Part shown: in pieces, positions 6,946 to 18,918 of the stretch | How positions within the stretch are numbered: position 1 is the first letter of the stretch | Layout of the letters: each line of letters starts with the position of its first letter | IMG/VR virus record: IMGVR_UViG_2574180227_000016 | Origin: a virus | Lineage: Duplodnaviria; Heunggongvirae; Uroviricota; Caudoviricetes | Reading direction: 5' to 3' (one strand) | DNA: 21,365 bases | Position numbers and translations under genes: made by a program | The notes under the pieces: generated by a model | The model's input: only the letters and a program-made list of their open reading frames with translations | Told to the model about the DNA's origin: nothing | The model's database searches: none

Positions 6946-7643
6946 ACACTTGCTCCTTTCAGTCCGAACTTAGCTTTAATTTCTGCGATCTTCGCCAGAG
7001 CCTGTGCTCGATTTAGAGGTCTGCCGCCCATGACAGGAAGTTGTTTTACTGGTTCAGGTATCGTCTCACCACGGTTAATTCGTGCTGTCATACAGGTCAG
7101 TTCATCGGCAGCCTTGCGCCGTAATTCCGCGTCAGTCAGCGCATTGGCCCGCATGTTCTGGTACAGGTTGGTAACCAGCCAGTAGTGCGCGTTTGATTTC
7201 CACGGATAAGACTCTGCATCCGGATACAGGCCACGCTTCCGGCAATACTCGTAAACCATATCAACCAGCTCGCTGACGTTTGGCAGTCCGGCGATAACGG
7301 ATGCTTCTTCCCGGCACCATGCAACAAACTGCCCGGGTGATGGAAGAAATGGTCGATTCTGCCGACGGGCTACGCGCATTCCTGCGTTAACCTGTTCCAT
7401 CGAGGTGATCCCGTTTTCCCGGAAAGCCAGAACCCACTGGCGGCGGATTTCATTCAGTTCGTTCTGGCCCCGGTTAGCCAGACTCGCCGGGAAAGTTGCC
7501 AGTAACTGGCTGAACACACCGTTGATGATCTGCGCTACCTGTTGTACCTGCGGCTTTTCGTCGTACTGTTCCGGCATGTTGTTGGCGATCCGACGCATCT
7601 GCTCACGGTCAAAGTTAACCATCTGTGCGGCGATGTTTTTCAT
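6942..7643 (-). CDS. P: replication protein P (DnaB helicase loader)
   Basis: 233 aa, [44 protein letters not shown]..., essentially lambda P. Overlaps the O stop by 4 nt. Confidence 0.9.
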   Translation of the reverse strand: MKNIAAQMVNFDREQMRRIANNMPEQYDEKPQVQQVAQIINGVFSQLLATFPASLANRGQNELNEIRRQWVLAFRENGITSMEQVNAGMRVARRQNRPFLPSPGQFVAWCREEASVIAGLPNVSELVDMVYEYCRKRGLYPDAESYPWKSNAHYWLVTNLYQNMRANALTDAELRRKAADELTCMTARINRGETIPEPVKQLPVMGGRPLNRAQALAKIAEIKAKFGLKGASV

Positions 7644-8545
7644 AAATCCACCCCGTAAATCCAGTCAGTGTTTGTCAGGTCGAGTTTTGGTTTGCTGGCT
7701 GTCACGCCTGCCTGTTGCTTGTTACGGTTGATTTCGAGCTGGGTCCACTTGTCGCGGAGTTTGGCCGGACTCAGCACGTTACCGGACCAGAAGTTGTCCT
7801 GGCAGGCCCAGCGGAAAAGCACACACATATCGCGGTGGTTACGTCCGTCACGTTCACGCATCAGGCGGATATCGTTAGCCCACCCTGCAAAATTCGGTTT
7901 TCTGGCTGATGGTGCGATGGTCTTCACCATGTCAAACATCCACTCTGCGGCGGTCAGGTCTTCTGCTGTTCCCCACTTGCTGCCGCTCTGAATTGCAGCA
8001 TCCGGTTTAACCACAGAAAGATCGTTTTCTGGCTGGTCAGAGGATTCGCCAGAATTCTCGGACGAATAATCTTTTCTTTTTTCTTTTGTAATAGTTTCTT
8101 TTGTGTGTCCCTGTTTTGGTGACAGCGCTGTCACCGTTTTGGTGACACTTTTTGTCACCAATGCAGTGACATTATCACCAGAGTAGTGACACCCTTCGAT
8201 TTGCCATTCCTCGATGTTCTTGTTAGGCCCGATTTGCTGGCCTTCGCGAAGGATAACCTTCATCGCGATAAGCTCATTCTTGGCCTTGTTTACCTTCTGT
8301 CTTGGCAGCCTGGTAATTTGAGCTAACTGACTATCAGAGATGCGATCCATCTTTTTACCGTAGCCGTATGTTTTACGGCATATGGCGTGGGCAACCTTGC
8401 TCTGATTTTTCGTTAAATCTGCGCCGATAAGCTCTTCATACAGGGCATTTGCAAGACGGGTATAACCATCTTCAACTTCTGCCACACGACGCTCCACAGG
8501 CCGTTGTGAAGGCCTTAAATGTGTTACGGTTGCAAGATTACTCAT
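7640..8545 (-). CDS. O: replication initiator O
   Basis: 301 aa. N-terminus ([56 protein letters not shown]) parallels lambda O. The central linker is encoded by the iteron region. Confidence 0.9.
8064..8195. other. candidate replication origin inside O: AT-rich tract plus four GTGACA/TGTCACC-type inverted-repeat iterons
   Basis: AT-rich 8064-8105. Iterons GGTGACAGCGCTGTCACC (8118-8135), GGTGACACTTTTTGTCACC (8141-8159), GTGACATTATCAC (about 8166-8178) and GTGACAC (about 8185-8191). The location matches ori-lambda sitting in the O linker. Confidence 0.5.
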
Positions 8546-9425: not shown

Positions 9426-9473
9426 TCGAAAAAATACATCTTGTGCATGGATGGTTTTAGTACGGAGCGTAAT
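9399..9473. promoter_or_regulatory. OR operator cluster: three 15-bp sites of form AGTAC-N5-GTACT
   Basis: AATACGATATGTACT (9399-9413), AATACATCTTGTGCA (9433-9447, weaker), AGTACGGAGCGTAAT (9459-9473). The same motif recurs at OL (AGTACACATCGTACT). Confidence 0.45.
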
Positions 9474-9488
9474 AATGAGGGTATGAAA

Positions 9489-10142
9489 ATGAAATGGTAT
9501 GAACTGGCTAGATCCAGAATGAAAGAACTCAGCATAACTCAAGAGAAGTTAGCTGAAGAGCTTGGTATGACGCAGGGTGGAATTGGTCACTGGTTGCGCG
9601 GATCTCGTCATCCATCTCTTGACGAGATTGGTGTGGTGTTTAAGTACCTTGGTATTAATAACGTCTCATTCAACCACGACGGTACATTTTCACCTGTTGG
9701 CGAATACTCATCAGCCCCCGTTAAAAAACAATATGAGTACCCTGTTTTTTCTCATGTTCAGGCCGGGATGTTCTCGTCTGAGCTTAGAACCTTTACCAAA
9801 GGTGATGCGGAGAGATGGGTAAGCACAACCAAAAAAGCCAGTGATTCTGCATTTTGGCTTGAGGTTGAAGGTAACTCAATGACCGCACCAACAGGTTCCA
9901 AACCCAGTTTTCCTGACGGGATGTTAATTCTTGTTGACCCTGAGCAGGCTGTTGAGCCAGGTGATTTCTGCATAGCCAGACTTGGTGGTGATGAGTTTAC
10001 CTTCAAGAAACTGATCAGGGATAGTGGTCAGGTGTTTCTACAGCCACTAAACCCACAGTACCCAATGATCCCATGCAATGAGAGTTGTTCCGTTGTTGGG
10101 AAAGTTATCGCCAGCCAGTGGCCTGAAGAGACGTTTGGGTGA
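9489..10142 (+). CDS. cI: CI-type prophage repressor (HTH plus LexA/S24 autopeptidase domain)
   Basis: N-terminal HTH ([25 protein letters not shown]) and C-terminal S24 signature ([10 protein letters not shown], catalytic Ser; TFKKL, Lys). GAGG sits 8 nt upstream of the ATG at 9489. An ATG at 9483 could give a leaderless start. Confidence 0.85.
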
Positions 10143-10151
10143 GGAGGATAG

Positions 10152-10493
10152 ATGGCGTTCACTGACCTTGAATATCAAGCGGTCAAAAAAGAAGTTCACC
10201 AATTCATTGAAAGCATAAGGCCGCCTGAACATATCCGCAATGAACTGGATATTGTTTATAGCATCAATGACCAAACGATAGATATCGGCGAACAGCGCCC
10301 CGTGTGGCAGGGCAACCCAGGTGAAACAAACATCCTGCCATCAGCAAGAATCAAGTACATACGTTCTCTGGATAGATGGAAAATCTATTGGATGCGGAAG
10401 GATATGAAATGGCATCAGTACAGTACTGAACTTTCGCTGACTGATGCGCTTGAGCTTGTGCGTGCTGACCCGGATTGCTGCTTCTTCGGATGA
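10152..10493 (+). CDS. hypothetical protein co-transcribed with cI (cargo gene A, 113 aa)
   Basis: GAGGAGGA RBS directly after the cI stop. Tryptophan-rich C-terminal half (WKIYWMRKDMKWHQY). Flanked by a 15-nt direct repeat. Confidence 0.6.
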   Translation: MAFTDLEYQAVKKEVHQFIESIRPPEHIRNELDIVYSINDQTIDIGEQRPVWQGNPGETNILPSARIKYIRSLDRWKIYWMRKDMKWHQYSTELSLTDALELVRADPDCCFFG

Positions 10494-10563
10494 GTGAAGA
10501 GACGTTTGGATGATGGATGGTCGCAGAGATGCTCGTAGAGCATACAGCGATGCAGGAGAATTT

Positions 10564-10998
10564 ATGGCACTTAATTTAGAAAGAATATCTTTTATAACCC
10601 CATTTGATAGCAGCGAAGAACCCAACCAACCGACGCTTAATTTTACATGCAATGAATTTCCTGCGCGGCTATCAATTGATTTCAGGGTTGGTATGATCGG
10701 GTTGAAACCAAATTCAAGATATAATTTGGGTATTATGGTAATCCCCGCGCACCTAATTATAAAAAAAGGTGAGGAAATTCAATTCCCTGACGGCTCTTCG
10801 GAATCAGTTTCACTTTTCATCGATACGAAAGATAGCCATTTTGAAACAGGGGTTGGCGGACAGGTAATAGTAACATTGAAAGAAATTAGGGTCCCAGCTA
10901 AAGGGCTGTATAGTGTTATAGGGATATTGCAAGATAATGAAGACCCTAAAAATGAACTTCATAAAAATGAATCATTTTTCACCGTAGAGCTATTATGA
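10564..10998 (+). CDS. hypothetical protein (cargo gene B, 144 aa), AT-rich
   Basis: AGGAGA RBS 5 nt before the ATG at 10564. No TM segment and no recognised family. Confidence 0.55.
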   Translation: MALNLERISFITPFDSSEEPNQPTLNFTCNEFPARLSIDFRVGMIGLKPNSRYNLGIMVIPAHLIIKKGEEIQFPDGSSESVSLFIDTKDSHFETGVGGQVIVTLKEIRVPAKGLYSVIGILQDNEDPKNELHKNESFFTVELL

Positions 10999-11615
10999 GT
11001 GACGACAGTAATTTAAATAATCATGGAAAGCAAGACACCAACATATCTGAAAGCCGGAGGTTGAAGGTTGTTGGCGGTTCTGATTTTGAGGCTGAATTTG
11101 ATAATTCTCCCACCAAGGTGCAAAATAATTACATAAAACCGCCACAAACGGAGGAAGAAGTGGGAACGATCAGCAGAGAGGAACTTGATGCTCGCTTAGC
11201 TGCTAATAAAGCAGAGATGGAGTCTATTGCTTCCTCCATTAGGGCTGACATGGCTCTATCTCGTGAAAGCGTTAATGTCCAATTTGCATCACTTAATGCA
11301 GCCATAAGCTCTCTATCGTCCAAGATCGATGGAAAGATGGATAGCGCTGCTGGCGATATAAAAGCAATTAATGGGAGATTCGAAGGAATTCAAGGACAAA
11401 TAACAGGGGTTAATACCGCAATTAGTGGTGTTCAGTCGGGTATTTCTATACGATTAGCCATTTTTAGTGTCATTATCGCTGTAATAGTTGCGATTCCCGG
11501 GCTGGTATCAGCTTTAAAGTCAGACCACGCACCTTTGCAACAGCCTTCCACTTTGCAAGCGCCGCCACAAAATACCCAGCCAACAGACAACAAAAAAATC
11601 ACTCCCCAGCATTAA
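10995..11615 (+). CDS. hypothetical membrane-anchored protein (cargo gene C, 206 aa)
   Basis: ATGA overlap with gene B. Polar N-terminus, repetitive Ser/Ala/Ile-rich central segment, one predicted TM helix (IRLAIFSVIIAVIVAIPGLVSAL) and a Pro/Gln-rich tail. Followed by a strong terminator. Confidence 0.6.
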   Translation: MSDDSNLNNHGKQDTNISESRRLKVVGGSDFEAEFDNSPTKVQNNYIKPPQTEEEVGTISREELDARLAANKAEMESIASSIRADMALSRESVNVQFASLNAAISSLSSKIDGKMDSAAGDIKAINGRFEGIQGQITGVNTAISGVQSGISIRLAIFSVIIAVIVAIPGLVSALKSDHAPLQQPSTLQAPPQNTQPTDNKKITPQH

Positions 11616-11621
11616 CGCATT

Positions 11622-11649
11622 AACCCGGCCTCAGCGCCGGGTTTTCTTT
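11622..11649 (+). terminator. rho-independent terminator ending the cI operon (tIMM-like)
   Basis: AACCCGGC-CTCAGC-GCCGGGTT followed by TTTTCTTT. Confidence 0.6.
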
Positions 11650-11821
11650 GCCTCGCGATCCCCCACCTAAAAAAACATAACTCATTGTATTTATTGAAAA
11701 ATAAATAGATACAACTCACTAAACATCGCAATTCAGATCTCTCGATCACCTCCCAAGCCACTCAACCCTGCAAAATATAACCCCATAAAATACAAAACGT
11801 TATAAAAAACTAATCATATTT

Positions 11822-17748: not shown

Positions 17749-17924
17749 TGCGTGTCGCGTTTATCGGTTTATTACCATACCCGACTCGTTTTTGGGCTTC
17801 TGCGCTAATTGCAAAGCCGCATGTACTGATGGCTGACAACATCATCCCGGCACCAAAGCGCCGCCATACCGGTATTGCGGCTGCACGACGCGAAGTAAAG
17901 AAACGCAGGAGAGCAAAACGATGA
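17748..17924 (+). CDS. small basic protein (58 aa)
   Basis: AGGAGG RBS 6 nt upstream; TAATG overlap with the ea22 stop. Manual translation MRVAFIGLLPYPTRFWASALIAKPHVLMADNIIPAPKRRHTGIAAARREVKKRRRAKR. Confidence 0.35.
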   Translation: MRVAFIGLLPYPTRFWASALIAKPHVLMADNIIPAPKRRHTGIAAARREVKKRRRAKR

Positions 17925-18103
17925 AAAACCGTAAGGCAAAAATTCTGTTAGCTCGCAGAAACGGTGTTGGGGTCTGGCGCTGGTTGAGGATTAGTAACAG
18001 ACGAGTGAGGTTGACGGGGTGTTGCGGGGTGATGGGGCACAGCTGTTGCAAAAAGCCCAGCGCGTCACAGAACAGGCGGAAGAAAGGGTACGCAGTAAGA
18101 TGA
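17921..18103 (+). CDS. small basic protein, first of a tandem paralogous pair
   Basis: MKNRKAKILLARRNGVGVWRWLRISNRRVRL... ATGA overlaps on both sides. Confidence 0.35.
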   Translation: MKNRKAKILLARRNGVGVWRWLRISNRRVRLTGCCGVMGHSCCKKPSASQNRRKKGYAVR

Positions 18104-18291
18104 AAAACCGTAAAGCAAAGATGCTTATTTCCCGTGTATACAGACGTTGCTATCCCAGCCAGTGGTTGAGAGTTAGCAATCGCCGTGTGGTGTTGTACTT
18201 ATATTCTGGAATTGCCAGAGAGGGAATCAAAGATAAGCGCAGCGCGGCGCAAAACCGCTGGAAAAAACACTTGCGCACTAAAGGAGCCTGA
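18100..18291 (+). CDS. small basic protein, second of the tandem pair
   Basis: MKNRKAKMLISRVYRRCYPSQWLRVSNRRVVL... shares the start and the WLR-SNRRV-L block with the preceding ORF. Confidence 0.35.
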   Translation: MKNRKAKMLISRVYRRCYPSQWLRVSNRRVVLYLYSGIAREGIKDKRSAAQNRWKKHLRTKGA

Positions 18292-18502: not shown

Positions 18503-18918
18503 CCACTATTACCAAAGAACGTATTGAATTGTTCATTAAAAATCCGCTTGAAAACGGGCTTACTCGTGGCGAACAAATGGAACTGGCACGAATTGCACTG
18601 GCATCACTGGAACGCGAACTGATTCGCCACGAGCATGCCAAATGGTCTGACTCCACATTTGGCTGCGTTGGCCCCATTGGTCCACTGAAACACCTCTCAA
18701 AAGAGGCTCTGGAAGCCGCAGCCGAACCAGACGATCTCAGCGAGTGGGCTGATATGCATTTCCTGTTGTGGGATGCACAGCGCCGTTCTGGCATCAGCGA
18801 TGCTGAAATTACCGCTGCTATGGAAGATAAATTGAAGATCAACATGGAGCGCCAGTGGCCTGAACCAAAAGATGGTGAGCCTCGCTTGCACATTAAAGAA
18901 CCGGCAACTCTCCGGTAA
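18499..18918 (+). CDS. DUF550-like / MazG-like nucleotide pyrophosphohydrolase-type protein (tentative)
   Basis: 139 aa. The acidic helix KEALEAAAEPDDLSEWADMHFLLWD resembles the MazG-type E/D metal-binding motif. ATGA overlap upstream. Confidence 0.4.
   Translation: MTTITKERIELFIKNPLENGLTRGEQMELARIALASLERELIRHEHAKWSDSTFGCVGPIGPLKHLSKEALEAAAEPDDLSEWADMHFLLWDAQRRSGISDAEITAAMEDKLKINMERQWPEPKDGEPRLHIKEPATLR

Follow-up and report, generated by a model that had tools for sequence, protein, structure and literature searches.

A 15-nucleotide (nt) direct repeat, TGAAGAGACGTTTGG, brackets a single gene, here called gene A, just downstream of the repressor gene cI in a 21,365-nt stretch of DNA from a tailed phage (Caudoviricetes; IMG/VR record IMGVR_UViG_2574180227_000016), hereafter referred to as the window. 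We consider it probable, at roughly 70%, that the second copy of this repeat is what remains of a cI 3' end from a donor and would now also provide short homology for the gain and loss of cassettes at the hotspot between cI and N. Established in the analysis were the repeat itself, relatives with a single copy, the origin of the relics from coding cI ends, their co-variation with the local repressor tails, further cassettes and arrays, and breakpoints that coincide with the tail.

Repeat copies and single-copy relatives

The 15-mer is found at exactly two places in the window, at 10124-10138 (copy 1) and 10495-10509 (copy 2), both on the + strand, which bears out the exact direct repeat reported in a preliminary description of this DNA. 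No further match with up to 2 mismatches was found in the window (0.02 expected from shuffles). When one mismatch is allowed, the repeat extends to 19 nt (10124-10142 and 10495-10513), and TGA ends both copies. The preliminary description had taken the repeat for the last 15 nt of the cI coding sequence and had placed copy 2 directly behind the gene A stop. Copy 1 does lie at the cI 3' end, but it falls one base short of the end of the last sense codon (GGG, ending at 10139; stop at 10140-10142). Likewise, the two copies do bracket gene A, but one base (10494, a G) separates copy 2 from the gene A stop (10491-10493). One other exact 15-mer direct repeat is present in the window (2885/21062), which is approximately the chance level for 21 kb. 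Because of this second, unrelated pair, the in-window statistics for the repeat are moderate and only suggestive. The improbable part is the spacing of 371 nt, which exactly brackets one gene, and the decisive support is comparative.

This comparative support comes from relatives that carry cI and the two genes downstream of gene A, genes B and C, in direct succession and with one copy of the tail, namely HK542, HK244, Escherichia coli AVS0655, L237, and L262 (L numbers designate compared sequences). The junction reads ...CCTGAAGAGACGTTTGGGTGATGATAAGTCGCCGAGATGCTCG in the first 4 of these and ...TTTGGATGATGGATGGTCGCAGAGATGCTCG in L262, the latter agreeing in full with the sequence to the right of copy 2 in the window. 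Furthermore, the window and L262 share 99.7% identity from exactly position 10495 onward, with cI genes that are 70% identical. The 15 bases of copy 2 thus appear in L262 as the true end of another repressor. Because the identity with L262 begins at copy 2, copy 2 and B-C share a history that is foreign to gene A. The suggestion that gene A arrived separately from genes B and C is therefore supported by the single-copy relatives, as it is by the occurrence of gene A without B-C in at least 5 other downstream contexts.

A second line of evidence is provided by L100, in which copy 1 (CAGTGGCCTGATGACACATTCTGA) is the end of a real cI of 237 amino acids (aa) and copy 2 reads CAGTGGCCTGACGACACGTTTTAG. 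Both copies encode the same peptide while differing at four synonymous or stop positions, which indicates that copy 2 of L100 was once the coding cI end of another allele. An origin of the two copies from different cI alleles is incompatible with a target-site duplication.

In the window, copy 2 is followed by the 23-nt segment ATGATGGATGGTCGCAGAGATGC, which represents the left half of a conserved intrinsic-terminator hairpin and is common to phages with and without gene A. Together, copy 2 and this segment constitute 38 nt of shared homology. The intact terminator (GGTCGCAGAGRTGCGGCC and a T run) was identified directly 3' of cI in L201, L191, and L247, and also 3' of gene A in Stx1-type phages; the contexts part ways after ...GATGC. 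Since the terminator is intact behind cI or gene A elsewhere, the B-C module has a left junction of its own, at 10532/10533. Within this module, gene B (10564-10998 according to PGAP; phrog_5893) has a frame that is open from 10510, and gene C (10995-11615; phrog_5820) encodes a protein with a C-terminal membrane helix. Both PGAP and PHROG set the start of gene B 55 nt 3' of copy 2, behind its own AGGAG.

Gene A encodes a protein that matches DUF3024 (PF11225) with 108.7 bits (cut-off 24.9) over residues 4-113 in Pfam, belongs to phrog_3467, and matches the PADLOC candidate PDC-S43 with an E-value of 7e-42. As PADLOC lists PDC-S43 as a candidate, gene A is itself a candidate for an anti-phage defence gene. 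In the literature, no paper on DUF3024 was found, and PDC-S43 was found named once. The structure model (predicted local distance difference test score of 87.7) consists of a helix, a five-strand sheet, and a second helix; no nuclease or recombinase fold was found in it. In all contexts of the E. coli lineage, including those with unrelated repressors, gene A is preceded by ...TTTGGGT[G/A]AGGAGGATAGATG. Gene A together with its own ribosome-binding site appears to be a cassette separate from B-C. The GC content is 0.46 for both cI and gene A, 0.375 for gene B, and 0.43 for gene C. A scan of contigs for relatives of gene A yielded only two distant homologues from metagenome-assembled genomes, in which the tails are absent; therefore, the bracket is not inherent to every DUF3024 gene.

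Neither repeat copy shows significant RNA structure (z = -0.6 and -0.2) or a match to an Rfam family, and no internal inverted repeat or stable fold was found in the tail. Copy 2 is part of a mini-open reading frame (mini-ORF) for the peptide MSEETFG, the ATG of which overlaps the gene A stop; at its other end, the TGA overlaps the ATG at 10510, where the long form of gene B opens. The mini-ORF is probably a by-product of the copy 2 relic but could instead act as a coupling relay toward the ATG at 10510. As a separate observation, an exact 14-mer comprising the left part of the cI tail (GCCAGTGGCCTGAA, 10114-10127) recurs at 18851-18864, in a hypothetical gene 8.7 kb away. With about one such pair expected by chance in 21 kb, it is probably meaningless.

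Repressor tails around gene A and other cassettes

The segment of the window comprising gene A and both tails (10115-10532) was identified in 228 of 5,426 complete E. coli genomes, 18 of which contain the complete order cI-A-B-C. Among viral contigs, gene A with copy 2 is joined to at least 5 downstream sequences and is found behind at least 4 unrelated repressor 3' ends. In immunity regions of the 933W type (EDL933 and others), for example, the resident repressor ends 35 nt upstream, and it is followed by the non-coding relic CCAGTGGCCTGAAGAGACGTTTGGGTAAGGAGGATAGATG, gene A, GGATGAGTGAAGAGACGTTTGGATGATGGATGGTCGCAGAGATGC, and unrelated DNA that contains stk and a RuvC-like gene. The copy 2 of Stx1-type phages, located behind a pseudogene A, has decayed to AGAAAAGAGATTTAGG. 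Regarding one phage of this kind (L002, 3750-4090; Stx1/Stx2 II, VT2-Sakai-type), it should be noted that gene A is a frameshifted pseudogene, recovered in two tblastn pieces with 83% identity, and that it is followed by the decayed tail and the intact intrinsic terminator AAGGTCGCAGAGGTGCGGCCTTTTTT (fold z = -2.3). It is also worth noting that the whole 933W-type block of EDL933 (L003) is syntenic with a prophage region of Erwinia aphidicola (L292, 1501-3342), which comprises tail, DUF3024 gene, tail, hairpin, and the genes for a 153-aa protein and a Ser/Thr kinase. There, the block stands behind DinI- and DUF333-like genes, with no repressor at that place.

The sequence of the repeat follows that of the local repressor. 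Gene A of Proteus and Providencia phages shares 37% identity with that of the window, and both of its flanks are TGACGACACGTTTTAGG, corresponding to the local cI tail (...QWPDDTF). Since copy 2 fits the local cI tail even at 37% identity of gene A, a single ancient neutral scar is ruled out. The bracket around gene A of Kluyvera is the other common repressor tail (T2, ...TGGTCGGCGCAT[A/G]G[C/T]TGGTGA; the tail found in the window is termed T1), and a third repeat type surrounds gene A in Yersinia ruckeri. Moreover, the tails are found at junctions with a wide variety of modules. Within the Proteus/Providencia lineage, 76 contigs contain a single copy of CCTGACGACACGTTTTAGGGTG(TGG), which is followed by approximately 50 different sequences, four of them also found behind gene A, and the E. 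coli-type T1 tail has approximately 46 different right flanks. Shared downstream modules were found both in the presence and in the absence of gene A: pairwise comparisons of L076 with L117 and of L077 with L139 revealed 99-100% identity over 600-1200 nt from the tail on, while the upstream sequences are unrelated.

The preliminary description had regarded the occurrence of the repeat in unrelated contexts as evidence against its proposal. The tail does indeed occur behind unrelated repressors and around other cassettes, which broadens the observation and does not amount to a refutation. The left edge of copy 2 lies at the gene A stop in L100 and in the Morganella phage IME1369_01 (TGA directly followed by CAG...). 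In Enterobacter, E. coli, Salmonella SE1, and Proteus, this edge has apparently been trimmed by small deletions, and the right part fits the local cI tails. A copy that is trimmed on the left and matches on the right would be the pattern expected of repeated crossovers within the tail.

Other small cargo ORFs show the same arrangement. A 23-aa hydrophobic ORF (period of 87 nt) and a YoaK-like 32-aa ORF are both located between T1 tails, and L255 combines the two in one array with three tail copies. In Proteus-type phages, a 45-aa ORF is bracketed with a period of 154 nt. Larger arrays include gene A itself: in the Providencia phage PSTNGR2lys, cI is followed by tail, 50-aa ORF, tail, gene A, and tail, and in L294, by tail, orf68 (68 aa), tail, gene A, and tail. 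In 2.47 Mb of sequence around 120 E. coli-type tails, all 9 extra tails were located 87, 213, or 371 nt downstream and on the same strand, with none elsewhere. Gene A itself is, in most of its locations, flanked by a repressor tail on the left and by the relic of such a tail on the right. Many cargo ORFs begin at a TGATG that overlaps the cI stop. As to the YoaK-like 32-aa membrane peptide, it recurs behind repressor genes as a tail-bracketed mini-cassette in L255 and in L293 (1331-1429), where it matches PF28021. A YoaK-like remnant was also observed behind gene A in Salmonella phage SE1 (L008, 2343-2400); such tiny ORFs are mostly unannotated.

Relic tails can also be stacked without a cassette between them, as in the order T2-T1-T2 of L224. 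In lambda-type phages (L189/L192 and others), the cI stop is followed by TCGGCAAGGTGTTCTGGTCGGCGCATAGCTGATAA, a relic of approximately 35 nt from another repressor family's 3' end (...IGKVFWSAHSW). Therefore, lambda-type phages harbor a repressor-tail fossil between cI and rexA. Across all finds, the relics measure 15 to approximately 60 nt and the repeats 15 to 27 nt, and this variability in the retained length argues against a site-specific mechanism. In L200, L206, L194, and L252, it was furthermore observed that the last residues of the resident repressor (...YRRKR) correspond to an out-of-frame reading of a 57-nt relic of a lambda-type cI end. In these cases, the phages recombined within the repressor coding sequence, which thereby gained a new C-terminus.

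Proposed origin of the tail relics and competing explanations

We propose that copy 2 would be the left edge of DNA that formerly lay just behind a cI and consisted of a cI tail, half a hairpin, and B-C (cf. L262 and HK542). Each cassette's first relic would go back to an illegitimate join within the 3' end of a repressor gene in the donor, after which the short tail may have acted as portable homology. The order cI-A-B-C could then have resulted from an unequal crossover between a phage with the order cI-A-tail-hairpin and one with the order cI-tail-hairpin'-B-C, with the crossover point inside the approximately 38 nt that both share (tail plus 23 nt). Red/Erf-type phage recombination or RecA-dependent host recombination would add, swap, and delete cassettes at this hypervariable site downstream of cI. 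The minimal efficient pairing segment has been given as 23-27 bp for Red-beta and 31-34 bp for RecA (PMC3945230), and the 38 nt of shared homology exceed the value for Red-beta. The clustering of relics at 15-60 nt may reflect survivorship, in that long repeats would be lost fast and only joins that spare both neighbours would last. As with this survivorship account, we infer the order of events, the recombination pathway, and a sufficient frequency of short-homology exchange. A Campbell-type circular intermediate was also considered. It is unlikely, since circularisation would require cassettes longer than the 87 and 154 bp observed, and an unequal crossover yields the same products.

Several points weigh against this proposal. 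The exact repeat of 15 nt (19 nt with one mismatch) is shorter than the minimal efficient pairing segment; therefore, loss of gene A through the repeat alone would be inefficient and rare. The homology of 38 nt, in turn, applies only to crosses with phages lacking gene A, and recombination within the tail is deduced from the sequences. At least 7 independent illegitimate joins, each within approximately 15-60 nt of a repressor stop, must be assumed, with survivorship as the sole account of why they cluster. Moreover, copy 2 is retained beside gene A in non-cI contexts in L288 and L295, and in Erwinia, copy 2 and the hairpin are approximately 85% identical to the E. coli sequence, compared to 59% for the DUF3024 protein. 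This persistence could point to a function instead.

The preliminary description had interpreted the repeat as a duplication scar left by the insertion of gene A. A transposition- or integration-like event that doubles 15 bp of its target would account for the clean presence/absence polymorphism, with a single copy in empty sites, and for the direct repeat abutting the cassette at either side. However, the interpretation did not hold up, and a duplication of the transposition type is highly improbable and essentially excluded. It is largely refuted by L262, in which the identity begins at copy 2, and by L100, in which the copies stem from different cI alleles. In addition, repeats of 15 to 27 nt and relics of up to approximately 60 nt do not have the fixed length of such a duplication; no terminal inverted repeats pairing the cassette ends (10139-10150 and 10480-10494) were found; and the cassette contains no mobility gene, with the gene A model lacking a nuclease or recombinase fold. 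Both copies have also been carried to sites where the upstream gene has no such tail, and tiny cassettes with periods of 87 and 154 nt share the same anatomy. A chance repeat without any history, for which the second exact 15-mer pair in the window might speak, can be dismissed, as this architecture was encountered in hundreds of genomes and also in distant lineages that have repeat sequences of their own.

Two further explanations accept the relics as such and are both improbable in our estimation. The tail might be kept as a functional cis element, serving translational coupling or re-initiation, RNA processing of the PRM transcript, or as a DNA element linked to the cargo. The last of these would be comparable to aba, the self-immunity element next to bstA, and BTP1 does have a DNA element with a function at a cI-cargo junction (PMC8585504). 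Besides the persistence in L288, L295, and Erwinia, this would be consistent with copy 2 abutting the gene A stop even in lineages with 33-37% protein identity, with the cargo ORFs that start at TGATG over the cI stop, and with the mini-ORF linking the gene A stop to the ATG at 10510. However, the bracket is interchangeable (T2 in Kluyvera, a third type in Yersinia), it has decayed in Stx1-type phages and in Rahnella, an apparently older arrangement has the terminator alone and no gene after copy 2, and neither RNA structure nor an Rfam match supports it. The conservation is equally explained by repeated renewal from coding cI tails. A more specific role of copy 2, as the 5' part of the translation-initiation region of the next gene, is weakened by the terminator-only context of Stx1-type phages and by the start of gene B 55 nt further on. 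Alternatively, the relics might be purely passive scars of illegitimate joins without any part in later exchange, new joins being illegitimate as well or mediated by longer flanking homology. The variable relic length and the stacks without cassettes (lambda cI; L224) would fit, as would repeats of 15-17 nt, which fall below the minimal efficient pairing segment (PMC3945230). On the other hand, the same junction of gene A stop and tail leads into no fewer than 6 (Proteus phages) or 5 (E. coli phages) downstream modules. Several of them were also identified immediately 3' of a cI tail, with the identity beginning at the tail, and independent illegitimate events would not repeat one left edge every time. 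Passive scars are further disfavored because the new combinations call for a crossover between gene A and the downstream module, where the tail and a few bases are the only shared sequence.

Genomic setting and relation to known systems

A prophage adjoining mlrA in E. coli SCU-104 is 100% identical to the window, and RefSeq labels its cI protein as a LexA family protein. According to the annotation, cI is flanked by Cro, CII, O, and P on one side and by N, CIII, Kil, Gam, Bet, and Exo on the other. The genes cI, A, B, and C constitute one unit that ends at a strong intrinsic terminator (Table 1), and no promoter-like or terminator-like sites were found flanking gene A (10152-10493, + strand). 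The only integrase nearby is that of the prophage itself, approximately 10 kb away. Two further repeats were observed elsewhere in the window. Inside the replication gene at 7640-8545 (- strand), positions 8106-8147 contain two near-identical 19-nt units spaced by 23 nt, TGTCCCTGTTTTGGTGACA and TGTCACCGTTTTGGTGACA, which are each partly palindromic and resemble origin iterons within an O-like gene (cf. lambda ori). In addition, a 34-nt direct repeat with 82% identity (17913-17946 and 18092-18125, 179 nt apart) is located in the early-left region on the ea22/DUF551 side.

Table 1. Position, strand, and basis of the features in and around the cI-A-B-C unit of the window.
Feature	Position	Strand	Remarks
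cI repressor (HTH_3 and Peptidase_S24 by Pfam; C-terminus lambda-type)	9447..10142	+	Pfam matches, ORF list
Repeat copy 1, coding 3' tail of cI (T1 tail)	10124..10138	+	With one mismatch to copy 2, continues to 10142 (stop TGA)
Shine-Dalgarno-like spacer GGAGGATAG	10143..10151	+	Constant companion of gene A
Gene A, 113-aa DUF3024 protein, cassette cargo	10152..10493	+	Pfam, PADLOC, and PHROG matches
Mini-ORF ATGAGTGAAGAGACGTTTGGATGA (MSEETFG, stop)	10490..10513	+	Read from sequence
Repeat copy 2, probable non-coding relic of a lambda-type cI 3' end	10495..10509	+	Extends to 10513, including the relic stop TGA
ATGATGGATGGTCGCAGAGATGC, left half of conserved intrinsic-terminator hairpin	10510..10532	+	Follows cI tails elsewhere
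B-C module (leader, gene B, gene C)	10533..11615	+	
Intrinsic terminator closing the cI-A-B-C operon	11622..11651 (11622-11643 in a narrower delimitation)	+	

The closest known counterparts of the tails are the boundary or linker sequences found where modules of lambdoid phages meet (Susskind & Botstein 1978; Clark et al. 2001 on HK620; both as summarised in PMC3029335). These likewise are short sequences that recur at the junctions of exchangeable modules and coincide with breakpoints, and general or phage recombination has been proposed to act on them. Both features were found here, with the tail at junctions between varied modules and at least 4 repressor 3' ends, and with identity that starts at the tail (L262; L076/L117; L077/L139). 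In contrast to a dedicated linker, however, the sequence in question is the coding 3' end of the upstream repressor or its relic, it varies with the allele or family of the local repressor, and a copy recurs behind each stacked cassette. The aspect that appears to be new is a boundary formed by the 3' end of the repressor itself, re-created with each stacked cassette and co-varying with the local repressor. The interval between cI and N of lambdoid phages is a mosaic cargo hotspot, exemplified by lambda rexAB, BTP1 bstA, and 933W stk (Degnan et al. 2007, as cited in PMC8585504). The locus is the same as that described here, and so is the co-transcription of the cargo with the repressor in the lysogen. 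Whereas that account concerns gene content, our findings concern the anatomy of the junctions, i.e., the tail relics, the arrays, and the co-variation of repeat and cI.

The arrays also resemble those of integrons (attC, IntI), in which small promoterless cassettes are lined up behind one promoter, are each followed by a recurring short sequence, and are individually present or absent. However, the recurring tail is no attC-like imperfect palindrome and varies in length and sequence, and no IntI-type integrase is among the annotated neighbours listed above. Moreover, the exchange proposed here would be homologous or illegitimate, whereas that of integrons is site-specific. Gene A further recalls the morons reportedly described by Juhala et al. 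in 2000 and Hendrix et al. in 2000, since it is an additional gene that separates direct neighbours of relatives (cI-B-C in HK542, AVS0655, and L262 compared to cI-A-B-C) and is dispensable and plausibly of benefit to the lysogen. It differs from them in residing within the cI operon, without a promoter-like or terminator-like site of its own, and in having a GC content equal to that of cI. With respect to the recombination machinery, relaxed or homeologous recombination by Rad52-like phage recombinases has been described (PMC2327257, PMC3945230). Such recombinases could use short or diverged homology, and the window encodes Bet and Exo; however, the published substrates comprise hundreds of bases, compared to the 15-38 nt proposed here.

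More generally, and only tentatively, repressor 3' tails may represent the recurring boundaries of a cassette system that works without a dedicated recombinase and is located just downstream of cI in lambdoid prophages across the Enterobacterales. Every small cargo expressed in the lysogen (DUF3024, tiny membrane peptides such as the YoaK-like one, and others) would hold a relic tail at its 3' side, and short-homology recombination would renew these tails from real cI genes. If this is true, the cassettes could be stacked into arrays, exchanged between heteroimmune phages, and lost again, which would represent a concrete instance of Botstein's 'linker' model at a defence-gene hotspot.

The origin of mosaic joints has long been debated, with illegitimate recombination followed by selection on the one hand and homologous exchange at short linkers on the other, with linkers being difficult to find at most junctions (PMC3029335, PMC2327257). 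The locus described here provides a clear, repeated, and datable example of such joints, and it is situated at the cI-N hotspot, which carries prophage defence and exclusion genes (PMC8585504). Like strata, the tail relics log the order in which cassettes were acquired and mark them as independent units, and they predict specific recombinant junctions. A scan for repeats of the last 15-60 nt of the repressor gene would help to delimit cargo cassettes in prophage annotation, including tiny ORFs that are currently unannotated.

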